Part shown: positions 6,530-48,040 of the stretch, piece after piece
Position numbering within the stretch: the stretch's first letter is position 1
How the letters are laid out: every line of letters starts with the position of its first letter
Assembly: GCA_000991245.1 (NCBI GenBank)
Contig: LBRD01000003.1
Span: 6,734-70,733, forward strand
Source: Parcubacteria group bacterium GW2011_GWC1_36_108
GTDB taxonomy: Bacteria; Patescibacteriota; Minisyncoccia; Moranbacterales; GWC2-37-73
Direction: 5' to 3'
DNA length: 64,000 bases
Position numbers and translations under genes: made by a program
The notes under the pieces: generated by a model
Seen by the model: the letters and a program-made list of their open reading frames with translations, nothing else
What the model was told of the DNA's origin: nothing
The model's database searches: none

Positions 6530-6735
6530 ACTCATTTCCACATTTCTTTTTCCCGCAAAAAGAAACCTGGAGGAAAGAAAAGCTCGCACCTGATGAAGAT
6601 ACTGTGGCAAAAACTTCACTCTTCACTAAAATTTCTAACCGCCTCCGTCATTTTTGAAAATGACTCCGCGAAGAAATTTCTTAACGCTCATCACTCGTTT
6701 TTCGCCTATGTACTTCATATGGTGCAGATAGGCTC
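6530..6735. repeat. Composite repeat D + C-head downstream of ugd; contains terminator-like hairpin tttctttttCCCGCaaaaagaaa
   Basis: actcatttccacatttctttttcccgcaaaaagaaacctggaggaaagaaaagctcgcacc[t/g]gatgaagatactgtggcaaaaacttc... is repeated at 9341-9440 and truncated at 38945-38975. ORF 6593..6841 starts inside the repeat and is rejected. Confidence 0.65.
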
Positions 6736-22896: not shown

Positions 22897-23136
22897 AATT
22901 TTTTATTGTGTCAGGGTTGAGCTTCTTCAGAATTAAATTTTTTAAAAAATATTCTCGACGCTCCTTATTTTTTATCTGCACCCTCCGGGTATATATTATC
23001 CGGACAAAATCACAGATTTTGAAGGATGATTAAAATTTTCCCTCAATCAACACAATTATAGGAAAATTTTAGAAAAAATAAGGGCTTACTCAATCAAAAA
23101 ATATTTTTAAAAAAATTTATTCTTCAGTCGCTCCTC

Positions 23137-40820: not shown

Positions 40821-40848
40821 TTTATTTTTTATAAAAATATTTTCACAT

Positions 40849-40930
40849 TGTCATTCCCGTGAAAACGGGAATCCAGGACTGAGTCTGACTGAAGAGCTAA
40901 ACTGGATCCTGAAACAAGTTCAGGATGACA
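40849..40930. mobile_element. MITE-like element, TGTCATTCC family, copy 4 (between fmt and def)
   Basis: tgtcattcccgtgaaaacgggaatccaggactgag...ggatcctgaaacaagttcaggatgaca. Confidence 0.7.
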
Positions 40931-40940
40931 AACAATTAAT

Positions 40941-41444: not shown

Positions 41445-42263
41445 TTAAAATGGGCTTTTGATGTTTCTAAGCATTGGATTAGTTACTTTCGTGTATATCT
41501 GTGTTGTTCTTATATTAGCATGTCCAAGCAATTCTTGTACATATCGCACATCAACCCCATTTTCAAGCAGATGAGTGGCAAAAGAATGTCTAAGTGAGTG
41601 AAAAGTGGCTTCTTTTTGAACCTCAGCTTTTTGCAGAGCATTTTCAAAAACTTTTTGTGCGCTACGCTCATCTAATTTTCCTCCGCGATTACTGGCAAAA
41701 ACATAATCATTTAAATCTCTAAGCGCAATCATATTAAGCAATTGTGGTTTCAATTTTTCTGAAATTACACTTATTCTATCCTTGTTTCCTTTAGCTCCTT
41801 TTATATGAATTGTTAATTCGTCTAAATTGATGTCTTTAATCTTTAAATTTATTGCTTCACTGACGCGAAAACCTGCGCCATAGGAAAGGGAAATGAGCAG
41901 CTTATGTTTCGGATTGCTTATGGAATCAATCATTCTTCCAATCTCATCCCTAGAAAGTACTACGGGCAATTTGCTGGCAGTTTTGGCAAATTTGATATCA
42001 ATTTCAATATTATTTTTAAAAACTTCTCTATAAAAGTATTTAATAGCTTGAAGATGCACATTCATCGTCTGTGAGGATTGTCCACGAGCTTGTTTTTCTA
42101 ATAAATATTTCTTAATTACTTCAATTTCCGGTTCGCGCTTAATAATTTTAATGTATTTGAAATATTCATTCAGACAAGACAAATAACTCTCAATTGTCCT
42201 TGGACTGTAATTTCGAAGTTTCAGTTCGTTTTTGATTTTTTCCAGCAACTCTTGGAGATTCAT
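41445..42263 (-). CDS. Xer-type tyrosine site-specific recombinase (272 aa; lacks the integron-integrase additional domain)
   Basis: Catalytic residues. R in LSYGAGFRVSEAINLKIKDI. KGAKGNKDRISVISEKL. HSLRHSFATHLLENGVDVRYVQELLGHANIRTTQIYTKV (H-x-x-R ... Y). Only ~45 aa lie between patch III and HSLRHSF, so there is no room for the IntI-specific domain. Transcribed divergently from the downstream cassette-like array. Confidence 0.85.
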   Translation of the reverse strand: MNLQELLEKIKNELKLRNYSPRTIESYLSCLNEYFKYIKIIKREPEIEVIKKYLLEKQARGQSSQTMNVHLQAIKYFYREVFKNNIEIDIKFAKTASKLPVVLSRDEIGRMIDSISNPKHKLLISLSYGAGFRVSEAINLKIKDINLDELTIHIKGAKGNKDRISVISEKLKPQLLNMIALRDLNDYVFASNRGGKLDERSAQKVFENALQKAEVQKEATFHSLRHSFATHLLENGVDVRYVQELLGHANIRTTQIYTKVTNPMLRNIKSPF

Positions 42264-42375
42264 AAAAAATATGCTATATTTTATTCATAAATCAGTGATG
42301 GTTGTATTATACTAAAAGTTCGCATAACCTGCAACTTTCAACATACTATCAAACACTAAGTTCGTATATAAAGGA

Positions 42376-42384
42376 GTTATGTGC
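42376..42384 (+). promoter_or_regulatory. attI-like recombination core site G^TTATGTGC, ~110 bp upstream of the recombinase start codon
   Basis: GTTATGTGC is the exact reverse complement of the inverse core GCACATAAC (43157-43165) of the first attC-like element. Same G^TT context as the three downstream elements. Confidence 0.55.
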
Positions 42385-42489
42385 AATAGCCAGAAATACC
42401 CCATTATCTTTTAGAATTTTTTTTGGCGAAATGCAGGGTCGAATAACTCAAGGTAAAATTAATATTAATTAAATTAAACAACAAACATT

Positions 42490-43110
42490 ATGAAAGAAAT
42501 GTATCAACCATCGCAAGCTGAAATAAAAAAAGCAGAAGATGTCATGACTGAAGAACAAAAACTTGAGAGCATGACGAGAGAAAATGCTGTTCACGCAGGG
42601 GAAGCATCTTTCAGTGATTATGATGAAACAAAAAAAATTAACCCAGAAAAAACCCATAAAATTGAGATAGAACTGCAAGCCACAATTTATAAGGAATTCA
42701 ATGATCGAGTTAAAGAATTAGTTAAATCATATACAGAAAGCCTATCTGCCCTAAAAAGAGAAGCTAACTATGAAGACGACGAGCAGCTTGATGAGATAGA
42801 TAAAAAAATAAATGAATTAACAAAAAAATTATTTGAAGACTTTGGAGAACAGTATATGCGCTTAAGCAAGGTTGTAATAGACACCACAATAACAATATCA
42901 GATTTTGTAATTCATAAAAAAGACATGTTATTACAGCAAGAAGAAGATCAACAAAAAAGACAGGAGTTAGAAGCCAGCATACTTAAAAGCGAAAATGCAA
43001 AAATACAAAGAGCGGAAGCTGTCATAGCAAATCTTGAAAAATATATAAACGATGTTAAAAACAATTTTGAAAAAGGTGCTGAAGAATTAATGAAAGAAAT
43101 AAAGAAATAA
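42490..43110 (+). CDS. Cassette 1 cargo: hypothetical acidic coiled-coil protein
   Basis: 206 aa, E/K-rich, predicted coiled coil. No recognisable domain. Confidence 0.5.
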   Translation: MKEMYQPSQAEIKKAEDVMTEEQKLESMTRENAVHAGEASFSDYDETKKINPEKTHKIEIELQATIYKEFNDRVKELVKSYTESLSALKREANYEDDEQLDEIDKKINELTKKLFEDFGEQYMRLSKVVIDTTITISDFVIHKKDMLLQQEEDQQKRQELEASILKSENAKIQRAEAVIANLEKYINDVKNNFEKGAEELMKEIKK

Positions 43111-43156
43111 GAAAAATTCGCCAAAAAAAATTAAACACAAATAAGGAATGGGTATT

Positions 43157-43364
43157 TCTAGCTACAGCACATAACAGCCCATATCTGGCTACAGGAAATT
43201 GACGCTAGTAAAAACAATATTGAGTGTCAATTTCCCTCCGCCCAAATTTTCATCCCTTGGTTTGATGAAGGTTTAGGCGGAGTGCATTAAAAAAAATATC
43301 AGCCTGTAATTAAAGTTTATCCTGCTAAACGGGATGAAAACTTCAGATATGGGCGACGTTGTGC
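43157..43364 (+). other. attC-like imperfect palindromic recombination element 1 (inverse core GCACATAAC ... core acG^TTGTGCG)
   Basis: 5' cccatatctgg pairs with 3' ccagatatggg. Internal hairpin gaaattgac/gtcaatttc. Conserved cccaaat and aacttcagat. The 3' GTTGTGCG is complementary to the next element's inverse core CGCACAAC. Confidence 0.6.
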
Positions 43365-43527
43365 GAAATAAATTTTTTATCTATACTAATATTAGCGTTT
43401 AGTGATGCTAGTAAGGACAGAAAATTTGATTTTTTAATTATTTTAAGAGGGGTAATATGTGTTTTTCTGCTCTTTGGGGAGCAGAAAAAATTAATTCATT
43501 TGTAATTTATTTTTAAGCAATAAAACT

Positions 43528-44430
43528 ATGAGCATGGAACAACCAAAATTTAATCCACACAATCCTGAATATAAAAAAGTTGAGGATTTACCAAAAGAAG
43601 AACAAGTAAATTATTCTGACGTTGAAGGTGGTTTTGTTCAAAAAGAAGCAGCTGAGTTTTATAAAATAGCGCAGGACATTGAAAGAATTACAGAGCGCGA
43701 AAGTGGCTCAATGAGTGCTGACAAATTCATGATGCTTCTCGCGCAAGATGAGGACACGAAAAGAGAATGGGATGCGCTTACTGGAAAACAAAAGCTCAAT
43801 GTTCTCATGGGAAATCCTAAAAAAGAGGACATGGATTTATCGACTTGGAACACGAATAGGTCTGCGATAGAGAAAACTCTTGAAGAACATCCTGAACTTA
43901 GAGATAACAAGAAGCTTATGCTTAAATTGATTATTTCAGGTACCAGTCAGGCACCAGGGCTTGCTTCTGAAAAAGTGCGTAATGATAAGGGTTACGCTTT
44001 GGAGGCGGTAAAACGAAACGGAATGGCTCTCGGGTATCTTCCAGAGGAGATGCAAGACGATGAAGATGTTGTTATGGCAGCAGTTACTACGCGTGGATTA
44101 GCTCTTAGAGAGGCTTCTCCACGATTGCAGAACAATAGAGAAATTGTTGCTGCAGCAATCACCTCAGAGGATGGAGACTTTGGAGACATAATATATGCCT
44201 CCTCAGATGAGGTAATTGAAAGTTTATTGGATGAAAATAACCCAGCCAATAAGGATATTCTTTTAAAAGCGATGAATAACAAGCATGTCAATGATAATTA
44301 TAAAAGAATTGCCAGCTATAATCCAAATCATCCAGACTACCAGGGTGGGCAGTACGATGAAGTTTTCAAGAGATATGAGCATCTGCACATGCGTGAGAAA
44401 ATAGAGAAAATATTGGGAGAGAATTTATAA
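43528..44430 (+). CDS. Cassette 2 cargo: DUF4116 repeat-containing protein
   Basis: KGYALEAVKRNGMALGYLPEEMQDDEDVVMAAVTTRGLALREASPRLQNNREIVAAAITS is two DUF4116-type repeats (VxxNGxALxYaS). 300 aa. Confidence 0.55.
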   Translation: MSMEQPKFNPHNPEYKKVEDLPKEEQVNYSDVEGGFVQKEAAEFYKIAQDIERITERESGSMSADKFMMLLAQDEDTKREWDALTGKQKLNVLMGNPKKEDMDLSTWNTNRSAIEKTLEEHPELRDNKKLMLKLIISGTSQAPGLASEKVRNDKGYALEAVKRNGMALGYLPEEMQDDEDVVMAAVTTRGLALREASPRLQNNREIVAAAITSEDGDFGDIIYASSDEVIESLLDENNPANKDILLKAMNNKHVNDNYKRIASYNPNHPDYQGGQYDEVFKRYEHLHMREKIEKILGENL

Positions 44431-44572
44431 ATATCCAAAAAAATACCAATAAGGAGTCTTGAAAAAAGGAATTCACCCCTTACCCCTCTTCCTTTTTTCA
44501 AGACAAAAATCAAATTTTCTTAGACGCAACACAACGTTTAGTTTAATAAAAAACGAGATAAAAAATTTACAT

Positions 44573-44701
44573 CGCACAACAACTCATATCTGGCTCAAGA
44601 AATTGACACTTTAATGTTTCAGATGAAAGTCAATTTCTTTCGACCCAAATTTTTGTGCAATTACATTGCGCAAAAACTTCAGATATGAGTAACGTTAGCT
44701 G
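44573..44701 (+). other. attC-like element 2 (inverse core CGCACAAC ... core acG^TTAGCTG)
   Basis: The stem is ctcatatctgg / ccagatatgag. Against element 1 the pairs C:G>T:A co-vary. Same internal hairpin gaaattgac/gtcaatttc. 3' core is complementary to element 3's inverse core CAGCTAAC. Confidence 0.6.
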
Positions 44702-44853
44702 AAATATTTTTTTGTCTTTAGTAGTGATTTTTAGATTTGTGATTTAAATAGGGACAGAAAATTTGATTTTTAATTTATTTAAAGAGGGGTAATGGGATAT
44801 TTTTTTGCTCCTGGAATCGCAAAAAAAAGATTTATTTTATTTTTAAAAACAGT

Positions 44854-46431
44854 ATGGAAAAATATTCATTAGAAAATGCCCAGAGCGAAGCTACTGTTAT
44901 TAGAAATGATGCACAAGAGGCAAAACAAAAAAGAGTGCTAGAGGGCGAAAAAAGCGGTGAGCCAAATAGAGATGATTATGACAAAGCCGACAAAGCGATT
45001 GATAGCATTGGCATAAGTAATAGAAAAGAATTTGAGCAAAAACAAGCTGAGATACAAAATAAATATTCAACCGTATTGGAGGGGTCAAAAAATAGCGGTA
45101 ATCAAGAATCTGTAAAATTGCTTCAAGATAACATGAGTCAAGAACTATCTTTTATTGATAGCCAATCAAAGAAATTTAATAGTTTGGAATTTAAAAAGGG
45201 AGAGAAGGCGACGCGTGAATATATTAAAAAAAATAATCTTGATAAATTAGTAGAAGAATTCGGAATTGAGCCAATGAAAGAGGGTTGTCGTCTTTCATTG
45301 GTCATTCCAGCATGCAACGAGGGGCGTGATATTCAAAAAACATTACAATCCTTAGCAGAGCAGAAAGATGAAAATGGTGAAGGTATTAATCCTGATGAAT
45401 TTGAGGTTTTGATTACAGTCAATCAAAAAGAGCAATCAAGCGAGGAAATAAAAAAATCAAATCAACAAACACTTGAAGCAATAGAAGAATTCAAAAGGAA
45501 TAATCCATCTTTAAATATCCATGCTATTTTAAAAGAATTTACGGGCGAGCAAGGTGGTGTTGGTTGGGCAAGAAAATTAGGAAGTGATTTGGTACTTGCA
45601 AGAAGTTTTAGCAGAAATCAAGAATCTGAACGAGAACCGATGTATATTGCAGGAACTGACGCTGATACAATTGTTGGTGAGCAATATGTATCAGAAATTA
45701 TCAAGGCAGCAAATAAGTATGGCGATGCCGCCTATGGCGGTGGTGTTATTTTTGATGAGAATTGGGAAAAAGCATTGGGAAAAAATGCGTCCGACAAGCT
45801 CAGGGTATTCATGGAAGATATGCGTGGATTTCTATTAAAGGCATTAAATGGCGGTTTGCAAGGTGCAAACTTTGCCATACGCGAAGATATCTATGCTCGC
45901 ATGGAAGGAAGCTCAACAAAAGTACATAGCGAAGATGCGGAAAATGATGAACGATTACGAAGTTTGAAAAAAAATGTAACATTTTTAAATTCTGACCATA
46001 TCACTAGCTCTCGTAGGATGATTGGAGAATTCGAAAACTATATTGCTGGAATGCGAGGGCAAAAAATAGACTGGGAAACACGAAACAAGACTTATGGAAA
46101 GTCTGTCCCTACGGGAGAAAAAATTGACTTTACTGAATCCGAGCTTGATGAGGTAATTGCTTACCACAAATTACATAGATCAGATCTAATTATAGACAGT
46201 ATAACTTCGGAAAACGTAAATAATCCAGAGATGGTGCAATTGATTGGAGAAAAATATCATTCTGATTTTAAAGATTTAAAAACTGAAGAATTTAAGACAC
46301 TATTGAATGATAAAAATTTTAGAAAAAAATTACAAATTGAGATAGCATACAATATGTCTAAATTATTTGCATCGAAAATTTCATATACAGAAAAAGATAA
46401 ATTCATCATCGGAATTCCAGAAAAACAATAA
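44854..46431 (+). CDS. Cassette 3 cargo: GT-A-fold (GT2-like) glycosyltransferase-like protein with long acidic N-terminal extension
   Basis: LSLVIPACNEGRDIQKTLQSLAEQ (GT2 N-terminal signature) and YIAGTDADTIVGEQY (DxD). 525 aa, no TM or signal peptide. Confidence 0.5.
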   Translation: MEKYSLENAQSEATVIRNDAQEAKQKRVLEGEKSGEPNRDDYDKADKAIDSIGISNRKEFEQKQAEIQNKYSTVLEGSKNSGNQESVKLLQDNMSQELSFIDSQSKKFNSLEFKKGEKATREYIKKNNLDKLVEEFGIEPMKEGCRLSLVIPACNEGRDIQKTLQSLAEQKDENGEGINPDEFEVLITVNQKEQSSEEIKKSNQQTLEAIEEFKRNNPSLNIHAILKEFTGEQGGVGWARKLGSDLVLARSFSRNQESEREPMYIAGTDADTIVGEQYVSEIIKAANKYGDAAYGGGVIFDENWEKALGKNASDKLRVFMEDMRGFLLKALNGGLQGANFAIREDIYARMEGSSTKVHSEDAENDERLRSLKKNVTFLNSDHITSSRRMIGEFENYIAGMRGQKIDWETRNKTYGKSVPTGEKIDFTESELDEVIAYHKLHRSDLIIDSITSENVNNPEMVQLIGEKYHSDFKDLKTEEFKTLLNDKNFRKKLQIEIAYNMSKLFASKISYTEKDKFIIGIPEKQ

Positions 46432-46551
46432 GGAGTTTTGTTTCAAAAAAATTCACCCCTACCCCTCTTTTTTTGAAACAAAACGAAAAATCAAATTTTC
46501 TTAGTAATAAAACAAAGTTTGTATTAATAAAATAGAAGACAAAAAAATACA

Positions 46552-46744
46552 TCAGCTAACACGGCATATCTGGTTCAGAAATTTTTCACTTTTATACTTT
46601 TTAACGCCAAGGTTTGAAAAATTTCCTCTCCCAAATTGCGCTGTGATATGGCAAAGTTTAGTGATATAATTAAGGCAGGCAGAAAGTTGAAGTTTTAGCC
46701 AATGAATATGGGCGCAACTTCAGATGATGCCGATACGTTGTCGG
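46552..46744 (+). other. attC-like element 3 (inverse core CAGCTAAC ... core acG^TTGTCGG)
   Basis: The stem is cggcatatctgg / cagatGatgccg, with one extra unpaired G in the 3' arm (an extrahelical base). Conserved cccaaatt and aacttcagat. Confidence 0.55.
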
Positions 46745-46806
46745 AAATATCAAAAAACAAATTCATTAATATTTTTTTCAAGCCCTTTTGAAATTCAGGT
46801 AAAGAA

Positions 46807-46835
46807 AAAACCGCACAGTATTCTGTGCGGTCGTA
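46807..46835 (-). terminator. Rho-independent terminator for the minus-strand small ORF
   Basis: aaaaaaccgcacagtattctgtgcggtcg. On the minus strand this reads as an 8-bp-stem hairpin followed by a T-run. Confidence 0.6.
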
Positions 46836-46848
46836 ATTACATTTGTCA

Positions 46849-47019
46849 TTATATCGCCCTCGACATTTCCTGAATTGAAGCCTCGCTTAGTTTGTTGTGT
46901 TCTTTTTCGTCACAAGAAGCTATCAAGTACGTGCACAAGATTATAGTACCACCAAATCCATTGGGAAAATGTTGGGCATGTCTACAGTCATCATCTTCGT
47001 ATGGACAACGCTTTTCCAT
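46849..47019 (-). CDS. Small (56 aa) Cys/His-rich protein, possible zinc ribbon; inverted relative to the array
   Basis: MEKRCPYEDDDCRHAQHFPNGFGGTIILCTYLIASCDEKEH... Preceded by a strong SD GGAGGTGA at 47024-47031. Not in the ORF track (<60 aa). Confidence 0.45.
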   Translation of the reverse strand: MEKRCPYEDDDCRHAQHFPNGFGGTIILCTYLIASCDEKEHNKLSEASIQEMSRAI

Positions 47020-47105
47020 ATTAATCACCTCCTTGTTTAATGTGCTAGTATACTATTATTAGATAAATTATCAATATTGTCAAGCGGGGAAAAACTTCTC
47101 ATACT

Positions 47106-47120
47106 TAGATATGTTGTGCG
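47106..47120 (+). other. Degenerate attC 3' end / terminal core site tagatatG^TTGTGCG
   Basis: Resembles the 3' end of element 1 (cagatatgggcgacGTTGTGCGaaat) with a 7-nt deletion. Followed by the same gcgaaat(t)tttt context. No matching 5' arm found. Confidence 0.35.
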
Positions 47121-47212
47121 AAATTTTTTAAAAATGCTGTGGATAAGTTACGGTGTACGGTTTTTAATTATAATGATACAATATCACTATAATTAAATAA
47201 AGAATAAAACTT

Positions 47213-48040
47213 ATGCAAAATCCAGAAAGTCACATTGCCATTTTCAAGGGAAAAACTATCAGAAAAATCATTTTTCAAAAGGAATGGTGGTTTTCTGTTG
47301 TGGATATTATACAGGTCATAACGGACAGTCCAACTCCAAGGCAATATTGGGGCAAGGTTAAGCAGCGTGAATTTACTGATCTTCAGTTGTCCCCAATTTG
47401 GGTACAACTGAAATTGGAAGCTTCTGATGGCAAAAAATATGAAACAGATTGTGCAAATACAGAAGGAATGCTTCGTATTATTCAATCAATACCATCTCCT
47501 AGGGTTGAACCATTGAAACGTTGGCTAGCAAAGGTTGGTTATGAGCGCATTCAAGAGGTAGAAAACCCAGAACTTGCCAGCAAACGGACAAGATTATTAT
47601 ATAAACTAAAAGGTTATCCTGAAGATTGGATTGAAATGCGTATGCGTGGTATTGCAATTCGCGAAGAATTGACAGATGAATGGCAAAAAAGAGGTGCAAA
47701 ATATAAACAAGATTACGAAATTTTAACTGCAGAAATATCTGAGGCCACATTTGGACTAAAACCAAATGAATATAAAAAAGTAAAAAGTCTGAAGCGTGAA
47801 AATCTTCGTGACCACATGGATGACTTCGAATTAATTTTGACTATGCTGGGCGAGCGAACCACAAAAGAAATTCATAAAACCAAAGATTCCAAAGGTATAC
47901 AAAGATTGAAAGATGATGCTAGACTTGGCGGAGAAGTAGCAGGAACAGCTAGAAAACAAATTGAAAGAAGAATTGGCAGACCAGTGATTTCAGAAAAGAA
48001 TTTTCTGAAATCTAACAATAGGAAGAAAATTAAAAAATAG
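47213..48040 (+). CDS. Bro-N domain protein (phage antirepressor-like)
   Basis: N-terminal IRKIIFQKEWWFSVVDIIQVITDSPTPRQYWGKVKQRE matches the BRO-N family. The C-terminal half is K/E-rich. Confidence 0.65.
   Translation: MQNPESHIAIFKGKTIRKIIFQKEWWFSVVDIIQVITDSPTPRQYWGKVKQREFTDLQLSPIWVQLKLEASDGKKYETDCANTEGMLRIIQSIPSPRVEPLKRWLAKVGYERIQEVENPELASKRTRLLYKLKGYPEDWIEMRMRGIAIREELTDEWQKRGAKYKQDYEILTAEISEATFGLKPNEYKKVKSLKRENLRDHMDDFELILTMLGERTTKEIHKTKDSKGIQRLKDDARLGGEVAGTARKQIERRIGRPVISEKNFLKSNNRKKIKK

Follow-up and report, generated by a model that had tools for sequence, protein, structure and literature searches.

Does a genome of the Candidate Phyla Radiation (CPR) contain an array of gene cassettes comparable to that of an integron, and, if so, with which recombinase and at which sites is it assembled? 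The question is raised by a stretch of 64,000 nucleotides (the window in the following; positions 6734 to 70733 of contig LBRD01000003.1 from Parcubacteria group bacterium GW2011_GWC1_36_108), in which three similar intergenic elements, E1, E2 and E3, each stand behind an open reading frame (ORF) on the + strand, beside a divergently transcribed tyrosine recombinase gene. An earlier note on this DNA had called the elements attC-like. We consider it highly probable that they are attC-equivalent sites (attC1, attC2 and attC3) of three mobile single-gene cassettes, which form an integron-like array at a dif-like attI site and are served by a recombinase related to Xer and IntI.

Anatomy and conservation of the elements

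The three elements lie on the + strand at the places given in the earlier note. They are composed of outer arms (R'' and R'), inner arms (L'' and L', forming the L stem) and two internal hairpins (P2 and P3):

43166-43369, + strand: E1 (attC1), with R'' AGCACATAAC, L'' GCC-CATATCTG, P2, CCCAAAT and a branched P3; on the 3' side L' CAGATATG-GGC, the spacer GAC and R' GTTGTGCGAAAT, this R' being part of cassette 2.
44571-44705, + strand: E2 (attC2), of the compact class, with the L stem formed by 44582-44592 and 44680-44690, P2 by 44597-44607 and 44629-44639, and P3 by 44650-44661 and 44665-44676.
46551-46748, + strand: E3 (attC3), with R'' ATCAGCTAAC, L'' CGG-CATATCTG, P2, CCCAAAT and P3; on the 3' side L' CAGAT-[G]-ATG-CCG with a bulged G at 46726, the spacer ATAC and R' GTTGTCGGAAAT.

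The composite motif CATATCTGG..AAATT..CCCAAAT has three matches in the 64 kb, which are E1 to E3, with none expected from 100 shuffles. Likewise, a covariance model (R1), seeded with E2 and built on copies from other genomes, gives strong scores in the window for E1 to E3 only. A weak match of this model at 22947-23094 (- strand) carries none of the motifs and was dismissed as chance. Because the model clips copies with a large P3, elements elsewhere were listed by half-site matching.

The 5' arms, the internal hairpins, CCCAAAT(T) and AACTTCAGAT had been quoted correctly in the earlier note, and the C>T change matched by G>A in E2 is present, as are, in E3, the coherent changes and an unpaired G. 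It should be noted, however, that the 3' arms are tTCAGATATGGG and tTCAGATATGAG rather than CCAGATATGGG; they begin with TTCAGAT and not with CCAGAT, so that CTGG ends in a G opposite a T (G.T pair) and not opposite a C. Moreover, although the pairing of what was described as the outer stem is real, this stem is the inner (L) box, and the true outer R boxes, AAC...GTT, had been overlooked. When folded as single-stranded DNA, E1 (z = -7.1) and E2 (z = -5.8 for the top and -5.5 for the bottom strand) share a structure in which the outer stem closes a junction with the hairpins P2 and P3, and which is far better than that of shuffled sequences. The common fold that was to be expected is thus significant for two of the elements, whereas E3 does not reach significance by energy alone.

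A scan of one genome per species with a 21-base pattern yielded at least 119 loci, about half of them with complete elements; about half of the matches are due to chance, being from non-CPR organisms and lacking the 3' half. About 60 complete elements were found among the matches listed in CPR genomes. Nearly all complete elements are from CPR lineages (Moran-, Magasanik-, Falkow-, Nomura-, Kaiser- and Wolfebacteria, Peribacteria and the Parcubacteria group), and a few short contigs with a complete element are binned under non-CPR names. Such highly conserved sites in several named candidate CPR lineages suggest a common cassette pool. The core of E1 together with its R'' is also present in four other loci (L029, L099, L109 and L128), each time with another R' arm, and E3 has close homologues in L063, L117 and L049. 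A scan of viral contigs gave three matches, all without the 3' half and due to chance, and phage and plasmid collections (blastn, distant mode) contained no match to the element.

In 70 aligned copies, 86% of the cells in the three helices are paired as compared with 36-54% when the partners are slid, and the covariation score is 0.366 versus 0.153 after shuffling (0/500). Compensatory changes were found in 8 of the 11 pairs of P2 and in 8 of the 9 pairs of P3, and G.U pairs are tolerated in the helices. In 80 of 89 copies read with a bulge-aware parser, the variable triplets of the outer stem pair throughout, eight types of pair being represented (mean after shuffling 20.8; 0/2000). Of the same 89 copies, 48 have a bulged base, always at the same place, and in 46 of these 48 it is a G. 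Even the seemingly invariant part of the L box can change on both sides, as in the triple compensatory change CACATGCG/CGCATGTG, and other elements have a wholly different L box, TGTATGAG/CTCATACA, with the pairing retained. The junction bases GGYT, CCCAAAT and AACTTC are conserved, and element cores are in general 100-175 nt long. The earlier conclusion that the covariation reflects a selected secondary structure therefore extends to about 90 further CPR copies, in which outer stem, P2 and P3 all co-vary; the paired positions do not mutate independently of each other. That the elements are recognized as folded single strands, we infer from this covariation.

Some copies deviate from the general architecture. 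A minimal element of L132 (+1706 to +1790, counted from the start of the recombinase) measures about 70 nt and has R and L boxes but neither P2 nor P3, which indicates that the three-way junction is not present in every site. In hybrid elements of L110, L073 and L038 (alignment A1), the 5' and 3' triplets of the L box are of different classes and unpaired; these elements may be products of recombination inside the conserved core. The P2 loop (e.g., 44620-44630; columns ~62-68 of alignment A1) has a conserved A-AGGAG/AGGAA in most copies, which is Shine-Dalgarno-like on the top strand and anti-Shine-Dalgarno-like on the bottom strand. In E1 (43240-43345) and in the 170-nt class elsewhere, TTTTCATCCC pairs either locally with GATGAAGG or over a long range with GGGATGAAAA; the two foldings of the P3 region are mutually exclusive, and both partners are conserved.

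R boxes and cassette boundaries

In the alignment of 70 copies every element is framed outside the L box by 5' ...ATC-NNNN-AAC and 3' GTT-NNNN-GAAAT. Within the window, the 3' arm of an element finds its complement in the 5' arm of the element that follows, on the far side of the gene, which delimits the cassettes as follows:

42377-43358, + strand: cassette 1, 982 bp, with leader, ORF 42490-43110 (206 aa, no family) and attC1.
43359-44694, + strand: cassette 2, 1336 bp, with ORF 43528-44430 (300 aa, DUF4116) and attC2.
44695-46737, + strand: cassette 3, 2043 bp, with ORF 44854-46431 (525 aa, glycosyltransferase family 2) and attC3.

The arm on the attI side (42376-42400) is complementary to the 5' flank of E1 (43151-43175) in 22 of 25 positions; the 3' flank of E1 (43358-43382) is complementary to the 5' flank of E2 (44556-44580), and the 3' flank of E2 (44694-44718) to the 5' flank of E3 (46536-46560), both in 23 of 25. 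The two flanks of one and the same element are complementary in only 9-13 of 25 positions. In other genomes, R' of one element and R'' of the following one match perfectly (9/9) in 13 of 32 consecutive pairs, as compared with 2 of 93 for the element's own arms. The complementarity of the cassette ends reaches to about position 25 (0.62-0.72 at positions 13-25 versus ~0.3 after shuffling), where the sequence is unconserved, and is interrupted by an AA/CA mismatch at positions 10-11 in 84 of 131 cassettes. Such pairing across the gene is the classical signature of integron cassettes. The bases that follow G|TT belong to the next cassette and would once, in the circle, have faced that cassette's own R''.

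The class of the core carries information on its own 5' R'' (mutual information 2.09 versus 1.73 shuffled; p<0.0005) and none on the 3' R' (2.31 versus 2.36 shuffled; p=0.76), and many BLAST alignments between genomes begin or end within ~3 nt of GTT. Since the core is tied to the upstream cassette, the junction lies between L' and R', as it does in integrons. A cassette has the form TT-NNNN-GAAAT..., one co-oriented ORF, ...ATC-NNNN-AAC-A-[L''-P2-P3-L']-(N)AAC-G. L'' (CATATCTGG) resembles variants of R' such as GTTATCTGA, and L' (ACTTCAGATAT) resembles R'' and the left arm of attI, from which it follows that one arm of about 11 nt is present in two inverted copies, as the R box and as the L box.

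The recombinase and the attI site

To the left of cassette 1 are found:

41445-42263, - strand: tyrosine recombinase of 272 aa, immediately left of the array and divergent from it, the presumed cassette integrase.
42319-42327, + strand: TTCGCATAA, an upstream direct repeat of the left arm of attI.
42359-42387, + strand: attI, with the dif-like core AGTTCGTATAT, AAAGGAG, TTATGTGCAAT, about 95 nt upstream of the recombinase gene; crossover at or within G|TT 42376-42378.

The recombinase contains a Pfam Phage_integrase domain and a SAM-like N domain. It just passes the cutoff of NCBIfam NF040815 (224.5 bits; cutoff 220), recomb_XerA_Arch, a family which is itself named 'tyrosine recombinase/integron integrase', and it remains below the cutoffs of TIGR02249 for IntI (212.5 versus 265 bits, matched in two stretches) and of PRK15417 (132.5 versus 435). 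The best match in the PDB is the integron integrase VchIntIA (2A3V; E 1e-45), again in two stretches: residues 7-183 of the query align with 6-185 and residues 196-271 with 241-316. Residues 183-196 take the place of residues 185-241 of IntI4, about 43 of which are without counterpart. The archaeal XerA structures 4A8E and 5HXY match with E about 1e-43 and 1e-42, so that the similarity to IntI and to archaeal XerA is about equal; that to tyrosine invertases is weak (E about 1e-16). Judged from these alignments, the enzyme is an Xer/IntI-related recombinase without the IntI-specific (I2) domain.

The recombinase of the window is 100% identical to a protein that bears the name of the MAG Candidatus Moranbacteria GW2011_GWC2_37_73. 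Homologues of 272-280 aa, 70-89% identical, occur in very many CPR genomes. In 16 other loci, as in the window, a homologue (44-80% identical) stands on the same side of the elements and is transcribed away from them, and all of six independently sampled homologues have cassette-side genes at attI. Both in 20 other loci and in 58 metagenome contigs, attI is conserved at a distance of ~80-100 nt upstream of the recombinase start. From the 20 loci the consensus A-R-TTCGYATA(T/A), (A)AACGAG, TT-NNNN-GAAAT is obtained, in which the two arms are mutually inverted; these arms of 11 nt presumably resemble those of dif from Escherichia coli. With this, attI has the build of an Xer target, a core of ~28-30 bp in which two inverted arms of ~11 bp enclose a short centre. 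Most of the 20 genomes compared have a second copy of TTCG(C/T)ATAA, situated ~45 nt upstream of attI, and this repeat of the left arm is possibly an accessory binding site. Left and right of attI, the GC skew does not differ in sign in the window, in L120 or in L121/L122 (local windows of 16-64 kb), and the orientation of the platform relative to the skew varies among genomes. Because the sign does not change in these four loci, short as the windows are, attI is probably not simply the chromosomal dif.

Gain, loss and cargo of cassettes

Movement of a cassette is evident from two metagenome contigs from different samples. L121 equals L122 plus one cassette of 889 bp; in the flanks, 10.9 kb towards the recombinase and 2.2 kb beyond the cassette, there are 0 mismatches. 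The 889-bp unit consists of leader, an ORF of 179 aa, trailer and element, and its junctions lie within GTTA at attI. Four further metagenome contigs (L140, L143, L181 and L182) differ on the recombinase side by 2-14 mismatches in 3.7-10.9 kb (>=99.9% identity), and exactly from the TT of attI onward they are unrelated. Altogether, 20 different R' arms of first cassettes were found behind one identical left half of attI. L131 and L132 encode an identical recombinase protein, have on its side the same genes for a glycosyltransferase, DNA polymerase III delta' and a POTRA protein, and carry entirely different arrays. Beside the recombinase of the window itself no variation of the array was found; 24 contigs appear to share it (2 shown, 22 listed as similar).

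Of 27 cassette ORFs, 25 are oriented like their element, and the median length of a cassette is 1093 bp. The cargo in other genomes includes restriction-modification (R-M) systems, a SMODS/CBASS-like gene, HicAB, HEPN/MNT, Fic, APH and NUDIX. With the complementary flanks, the recombinase next to attI, the side of the junction, the gain and loss of cassettes and the hypervariable arrays, 'attC-like' is supported as the right functional description of the elements.

It was also observed that L143, L182 and several other metagenome contigs end ~100-600 nt past attI, as assemblers do at regions that are hypervariable in the population. Such arrays are therefore probably under-represented in metagenome-assembled genomes (MAGs).

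Comparison with integrons and Xer systems

In integrons, including the Vibrio superintegron with its VCR sites, the integrase gene is likewise divergent from the array with attI just upstream, and the cassettes, which mostly carry single co-oriented ORFs, terminate in imperfect palindromes of the form R''-L''...L'-R' with AAC...GTT. Strands cross over at or within G|TT, every site is completed by the initial bases of the cassette behind it, and homogeneous sites are combined with very diverse cargo (toxin-antitoxin, R-M, defence) in arrays that are hypervariable between strains. All this is the same in the CPR system. A canonical attC is a simple hairpin of 57-141 nt with a 7-bp R box and extrahelical bases on the L'' side. 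The CPR sites, in contrast, are three-way junctions (L stem, P2 and P3) with conserved junction bases; their R stem is ~25 bp long with an internal AA/CA mismatch rather than 7 bp, and the G is bulged on the 3' arm of the top strand (L' side), opposite to the canonical attC. Furthermore, the CPR attI is overtly dif-like with an extra repeat of an arm upstream, the recombinase lacks the I2 domain and scores like XerA, and the hosts are CPR organisms with genomes of ~1 Mb, a size class reported to be without integrons (PMC4889954).

The absence of the I2 domain is of interest with respect to the origin of integrons. An additional domain near patch III is regarded as the defining characteristic of IntI (PMC9668308), and IntegronFinder demands both PF00589 and intI_Cterm (PMC4889954); surveys with this program found no integrons in CPR and none in very small genomes (PMC4889954; PMC9024848). 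The current view is that IntI evolved from an Xer-like ancestor, and that the gain of the I2 helix enabled recombination of single-stranded attC (PMC4792948; PMC7790495). The only known reaction similar to cassette recombination is, according to Escudero et al., the integration of CTXphi, in which two inverted dif-like half-sites ~90 nt apart fold in single-stranded DNA to a forked hairpin that mimics dif; the hairpin, the stem of which is without extrahelical bases, is integrated via exchange of a single pair of strands (PMC4792948).

With CTXphi and the other integrative mobile elements exploiting Xer (IMEX), which integrate at dif via XerCD, the CPR system has in common an Xer-type recombinase without I2 domain and a dif-like target. 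It differs in that the mobile units are apparently promoter-poor single-gene cassettes rather than phages and are stacked in arrays with turnover, in that the site adjoins the recombinase gene with no switch of the GC skew there and, as compared with CTXphi, in the bulged base and the three-way junction of the hairpin. The single-recombinase systems XerA/dif, XerS/difSL and XerH/difH share the similarity of the protein to XerA structures and a core site with arms of 11 nt; in XerS/difSL the site also adjoins the recombinase gene. These systems, however, resolve chromosome dimers at the terminus and have neither cassette arrays nor folded sites. In the pdif modules of Acinetobacter plasmids small gene modules also lie between Xer-type sites, but these are plain 28-bp sites in inverted orientation on plasmids, whereas the CPR sites are directly repeated composite hairpins on the chromosome.

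On balance we incline to the view that this is an undescribed analogue of the integron, widespread in CPR, in which an Xer-type recombinase that never gained I2, or has lost it, captures and shuffles cassettes with the help of a dif-like attI and of folded three-way-junction sites having a bulged base. With the same reserve we would add to it that the system is either a living intermediate on the way from Xer/dif or CTXphi to integrons, or an independent invention. No earlier description of a CPR cassette system was found in the full-text literature, the coverage of which was incomplete, so that earlier work may exist; this group of recombinases appears there only under the Xer-related enzymes from candidate phyla (PMC8138268).

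The following mechanism can be envisaged by analogy with integrons and with the integration of CTXphi by XerCD (PMC4792948). In the free circular cassette or in a single strand, R'' would pair with R' and L'' with L'. The folded strand would thereby, as in integron attC and the CTXphi attP(+) hairpin, rebuild a dif-like core, here with an asymmetric centre (1 nt versus 3-4 nt unpaired) and a bulged G. Each R and each L arm duplex would bind one recombinase monomer, the bottom strand would be cut at 5'-AA^C-3' (G^TT in the top strand) and exchanged with attI, and the intermediate would be resolved by replication. The choice of strand and orientation, for which IntI uses its I2 domain, may here come from the hairpins P2 and P3 together with the bulged G, the AA/CA mismatch and the conserved junction bases.

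If this is true, the step from Xer to IntI becomes directly testable in a natural cassette system that has bulged hairpin sites and no I2 domain. Symbiotic CPR organisms with genomes of ~1 Mb would possess a dedicated platform for the capture of genes, such as those for R-M, CBASS-like and toxin-antitoxin systems, which is invisible to searches of the IntegronFinder type. The sites would also be candidates for structure-specific recombination tools.

Alternative interpretations

Although anatomy, covariation, position of the junction, gain and loss of cassettes at attI and association with the recombinase are matters of observation, several points weigh against a cassette array with folded sites. 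The support is computational throughout, and all comparative data are from MAGs and metagenome contigs. The fold of E3 (z = -1.0) has no energetic significance over shuffled sequence, its centroid still retaining the outer stem and P2. Neither strand is clearly favored: computed with DNA parameters, 71 of 93 elements have a slightly more stable bottom strand, and with RNA parameters the difference is not significant. This slight preference and the covariation are at most indirect hints at recombination of a folded bottom strand. Some of the adjacent pairs do not have a perfect R'/R'' match (13 of 32 are perfect), partly through missed sites, and since R' is supplied by the neighboring cassette, the R stem is weak in the context of the array. 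As the recombinase is without the domain that IntI uses on extrahelical bases, recognition of single strands cannot be assumed by homology. L'-spacer-R' could possibly serve as a plain double-stranded dif-like site, against which argues that the length of the spacer varies (10 versus 12 nt from GAT to GTT). Finally, no circular intermediate was seen. L019, considered as a circular cassette because of the complementarity of its own flanks (24/30), is a chromosomal contig and was rejected.

The recombinase could also be a housekeeping resolvase of chromosome dimers, a role that usually depends on FtsK, and attI the chromosomal dif, with the cassettes exploiting Xer as CTXphi and TLCphi do. This IMEX-type interpretation departs from that of an integron-like array only in the primary purpose of recombinase and site, and we regard it as unlikely while granting it some weight. 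It would account for a score above the XerA equivalog cutoff (NF040815), for the inverted 11-nt arms with their presumed likeness to E. coli dif and for a site that adjoins the recombinase gene, as is the case for XerS/difSL. The 70-89% identity of the recombinase in very many CPR genomes is compatible with a housekeeping role without proving it. An Xer-related subgroup of candidate phyla, 'Cand', is described by Smyshlyaev et al. in connection with simple recombinases that possibly stand in for Xer (PMC8138268). On the other hand, crossing attI does not change the sign of the GC skew in the window, in L120 or in L121/L122, platforms of different genomes are oriented differently with respect to the skew, cassette-side genes are found with 6/6 sampled homologues, and turnover of arrays between near-identical strains would be risky at an essential dif. 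That a true IntI acts on standard attC sites, i.e., that the locus is a canonical integron, is very improbable despite the divergent integrase, attI, the co-oriented cassettes, AAC...GTT, the G|TT crossover and an integron integrase as best PDB match: the recombinase has no IntI-specific domain, which contradicts a canonical integron, and stays below the cutoffs of TIGR02249 and PRK15417, the three-way junctions, ~25-bp R stems and bulges on the opposite arm do not conform, and none have been reported by surveys of CPR and very small genomes (PMC4889954; PMC9024848).

The remaining interpretations do without cassette capture. Since the elements belong to the coding strand, each ORF stands between the halves of a ~25-bp stem with an internal loop, the P2 loop has a conserved AAGGAG, the leaders have GAGGGG and G.U pairs are tolerated, the leader and trailer stems might be signals in the sense-strand RNA for processing of the RNase III type or for stabilization of a polycistronic mRNA, and the flanks would owe their complementarity to selection on the RNA rather than to recombination. 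However, Rfam 15 gave no match at gathering thresholds in the whole window and in 42250-46900 none even at E<=1, the sense strand does not fold better than the other, and selection on RNA cannot account for the insertion of cassettes within GTTA, the breakpoints of identity at attI, the strict association with recombinase and attI and the asymmetry of linkage. As the sole explanation it is refuted by the insertion within GTTA, while a role of the RNA additional to recombination is possible. An inversion switch, in which the recombinase would invert ORFs between the flanking R'/R'' repeats and so cause phase variation, is hardly probable either: ~25-nt inverted repeats do flank each ORF and there is a weak similarity to invertases (E about 1e-16), but 25 of 27 cassette ORFs point the same way, the polymorphisms are insertions and replacements rather than inversions, and Xer and IntI models score far above those for invertases. 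To an intergenic repeat of the type of miniature inverted-repeat transposable elements or repetitive extragenic palindromes, with a trailer-core-leader unit of ~400 bp moving between resident genes, we assign next to no probability. Indeed the intergenic unit is conserved across genomes and the ORFs are not; yet what moves is leader, ORF, trailer and core, bounded by GTTA, the innermost 25 nt pair across the gene rather than across the element, and in every locus having both, the array begins at attI beside the recombinase.

Leaders, trailers and surroundings of the array

Leader and trailer of cassette 3 are complementary in blocks over ~115 nt (with further blocks I15 and I1). The leaders 43399-43456 and 44736-44793 and the trailers 44442-44565 and 46421-46546 are modules common to cassettes 2 and 3 and to many genomes, and the leader and trailer modules of the two cassettes are mutually complementary over ~115 nt. 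The loop of the trailer hairpin, CACCCCTTACCCCTC, is complementary to GAGGGGTAATGGG in the leader; candidate roles are a DNA hairpin, mRNA processing and translation control. Short ORFs follow the GAGGGG of the leader (44793-44873 and 43457-43516, and in L059), starting with MGYFFAPGIAKKRFILFLK in the window and reading MFFAPGIAKKMITLF in L059. They overlap a T-rich/A-rich hairpin and could encode a conserved leader peptide or merely reflect a conserved DNA or RNA hairpin. Scans for promoters and terminators in 42200-47200 gave counts at chance level, and no tRNA or tmRNA is present in the window.

The first ~50 residues of the DUF4116 protein (43528-43680) are 56-60% identical with those of otherwise unrelated cassette ORFs in L115 and L016, pointing to an N-terminal module that cassette proteins have in common. 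Apart from these 50 residues, none of the cassette proteins of the window was found in other arrays.

Behind the last full element follow:

46738-46748, + strand: arm TTGTCGGAAAT.
47094-47123, + strand: solitary attI-like junction ACTTCTCATAC-TTAGATATG-TTGTGCGAAAT, without hairpin partner (fold z = +0.6).

For the arm TTGTCGGAAAT, only chance-level complementary matches exist within the window. The flank after E3 is conserved in L010 (95%) and L105 (90%), in the latter behind a different element, and the arm is presumably either the right half that attI originally had or a distal boundary. An empty attI would then read AGTTCGTATATAAAGGAG, followed by TTGTCGGAAAT. The variant L' arm of the solitary site is also found in complete elements of L019 and L121, and, in degenerate form, the array may extend beyond E3. 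The segment in front of the solitary site (46738-47116) contains a small gene on the - strand with a strong promoter-like site at 47083-47055 (11/12 matches) and a terminator-like hairpin at 46832-46809.

Just beyond the array lies a gene for a Bro-N domain protein (47213-48040), which has nucleotide homologues in the array of L101, between two elements, and in L073; it may be former cassette cargo. On the other side of the recombinase gene, the spacer between fmt and def (40840-40935) has two G+C-rich hairpins, TCCCGTGAAAACGGGA and ATCCTGAAACAAGTTCAGGAT, in a region where elsewhere (L123) an ORF of 44 aa is called.

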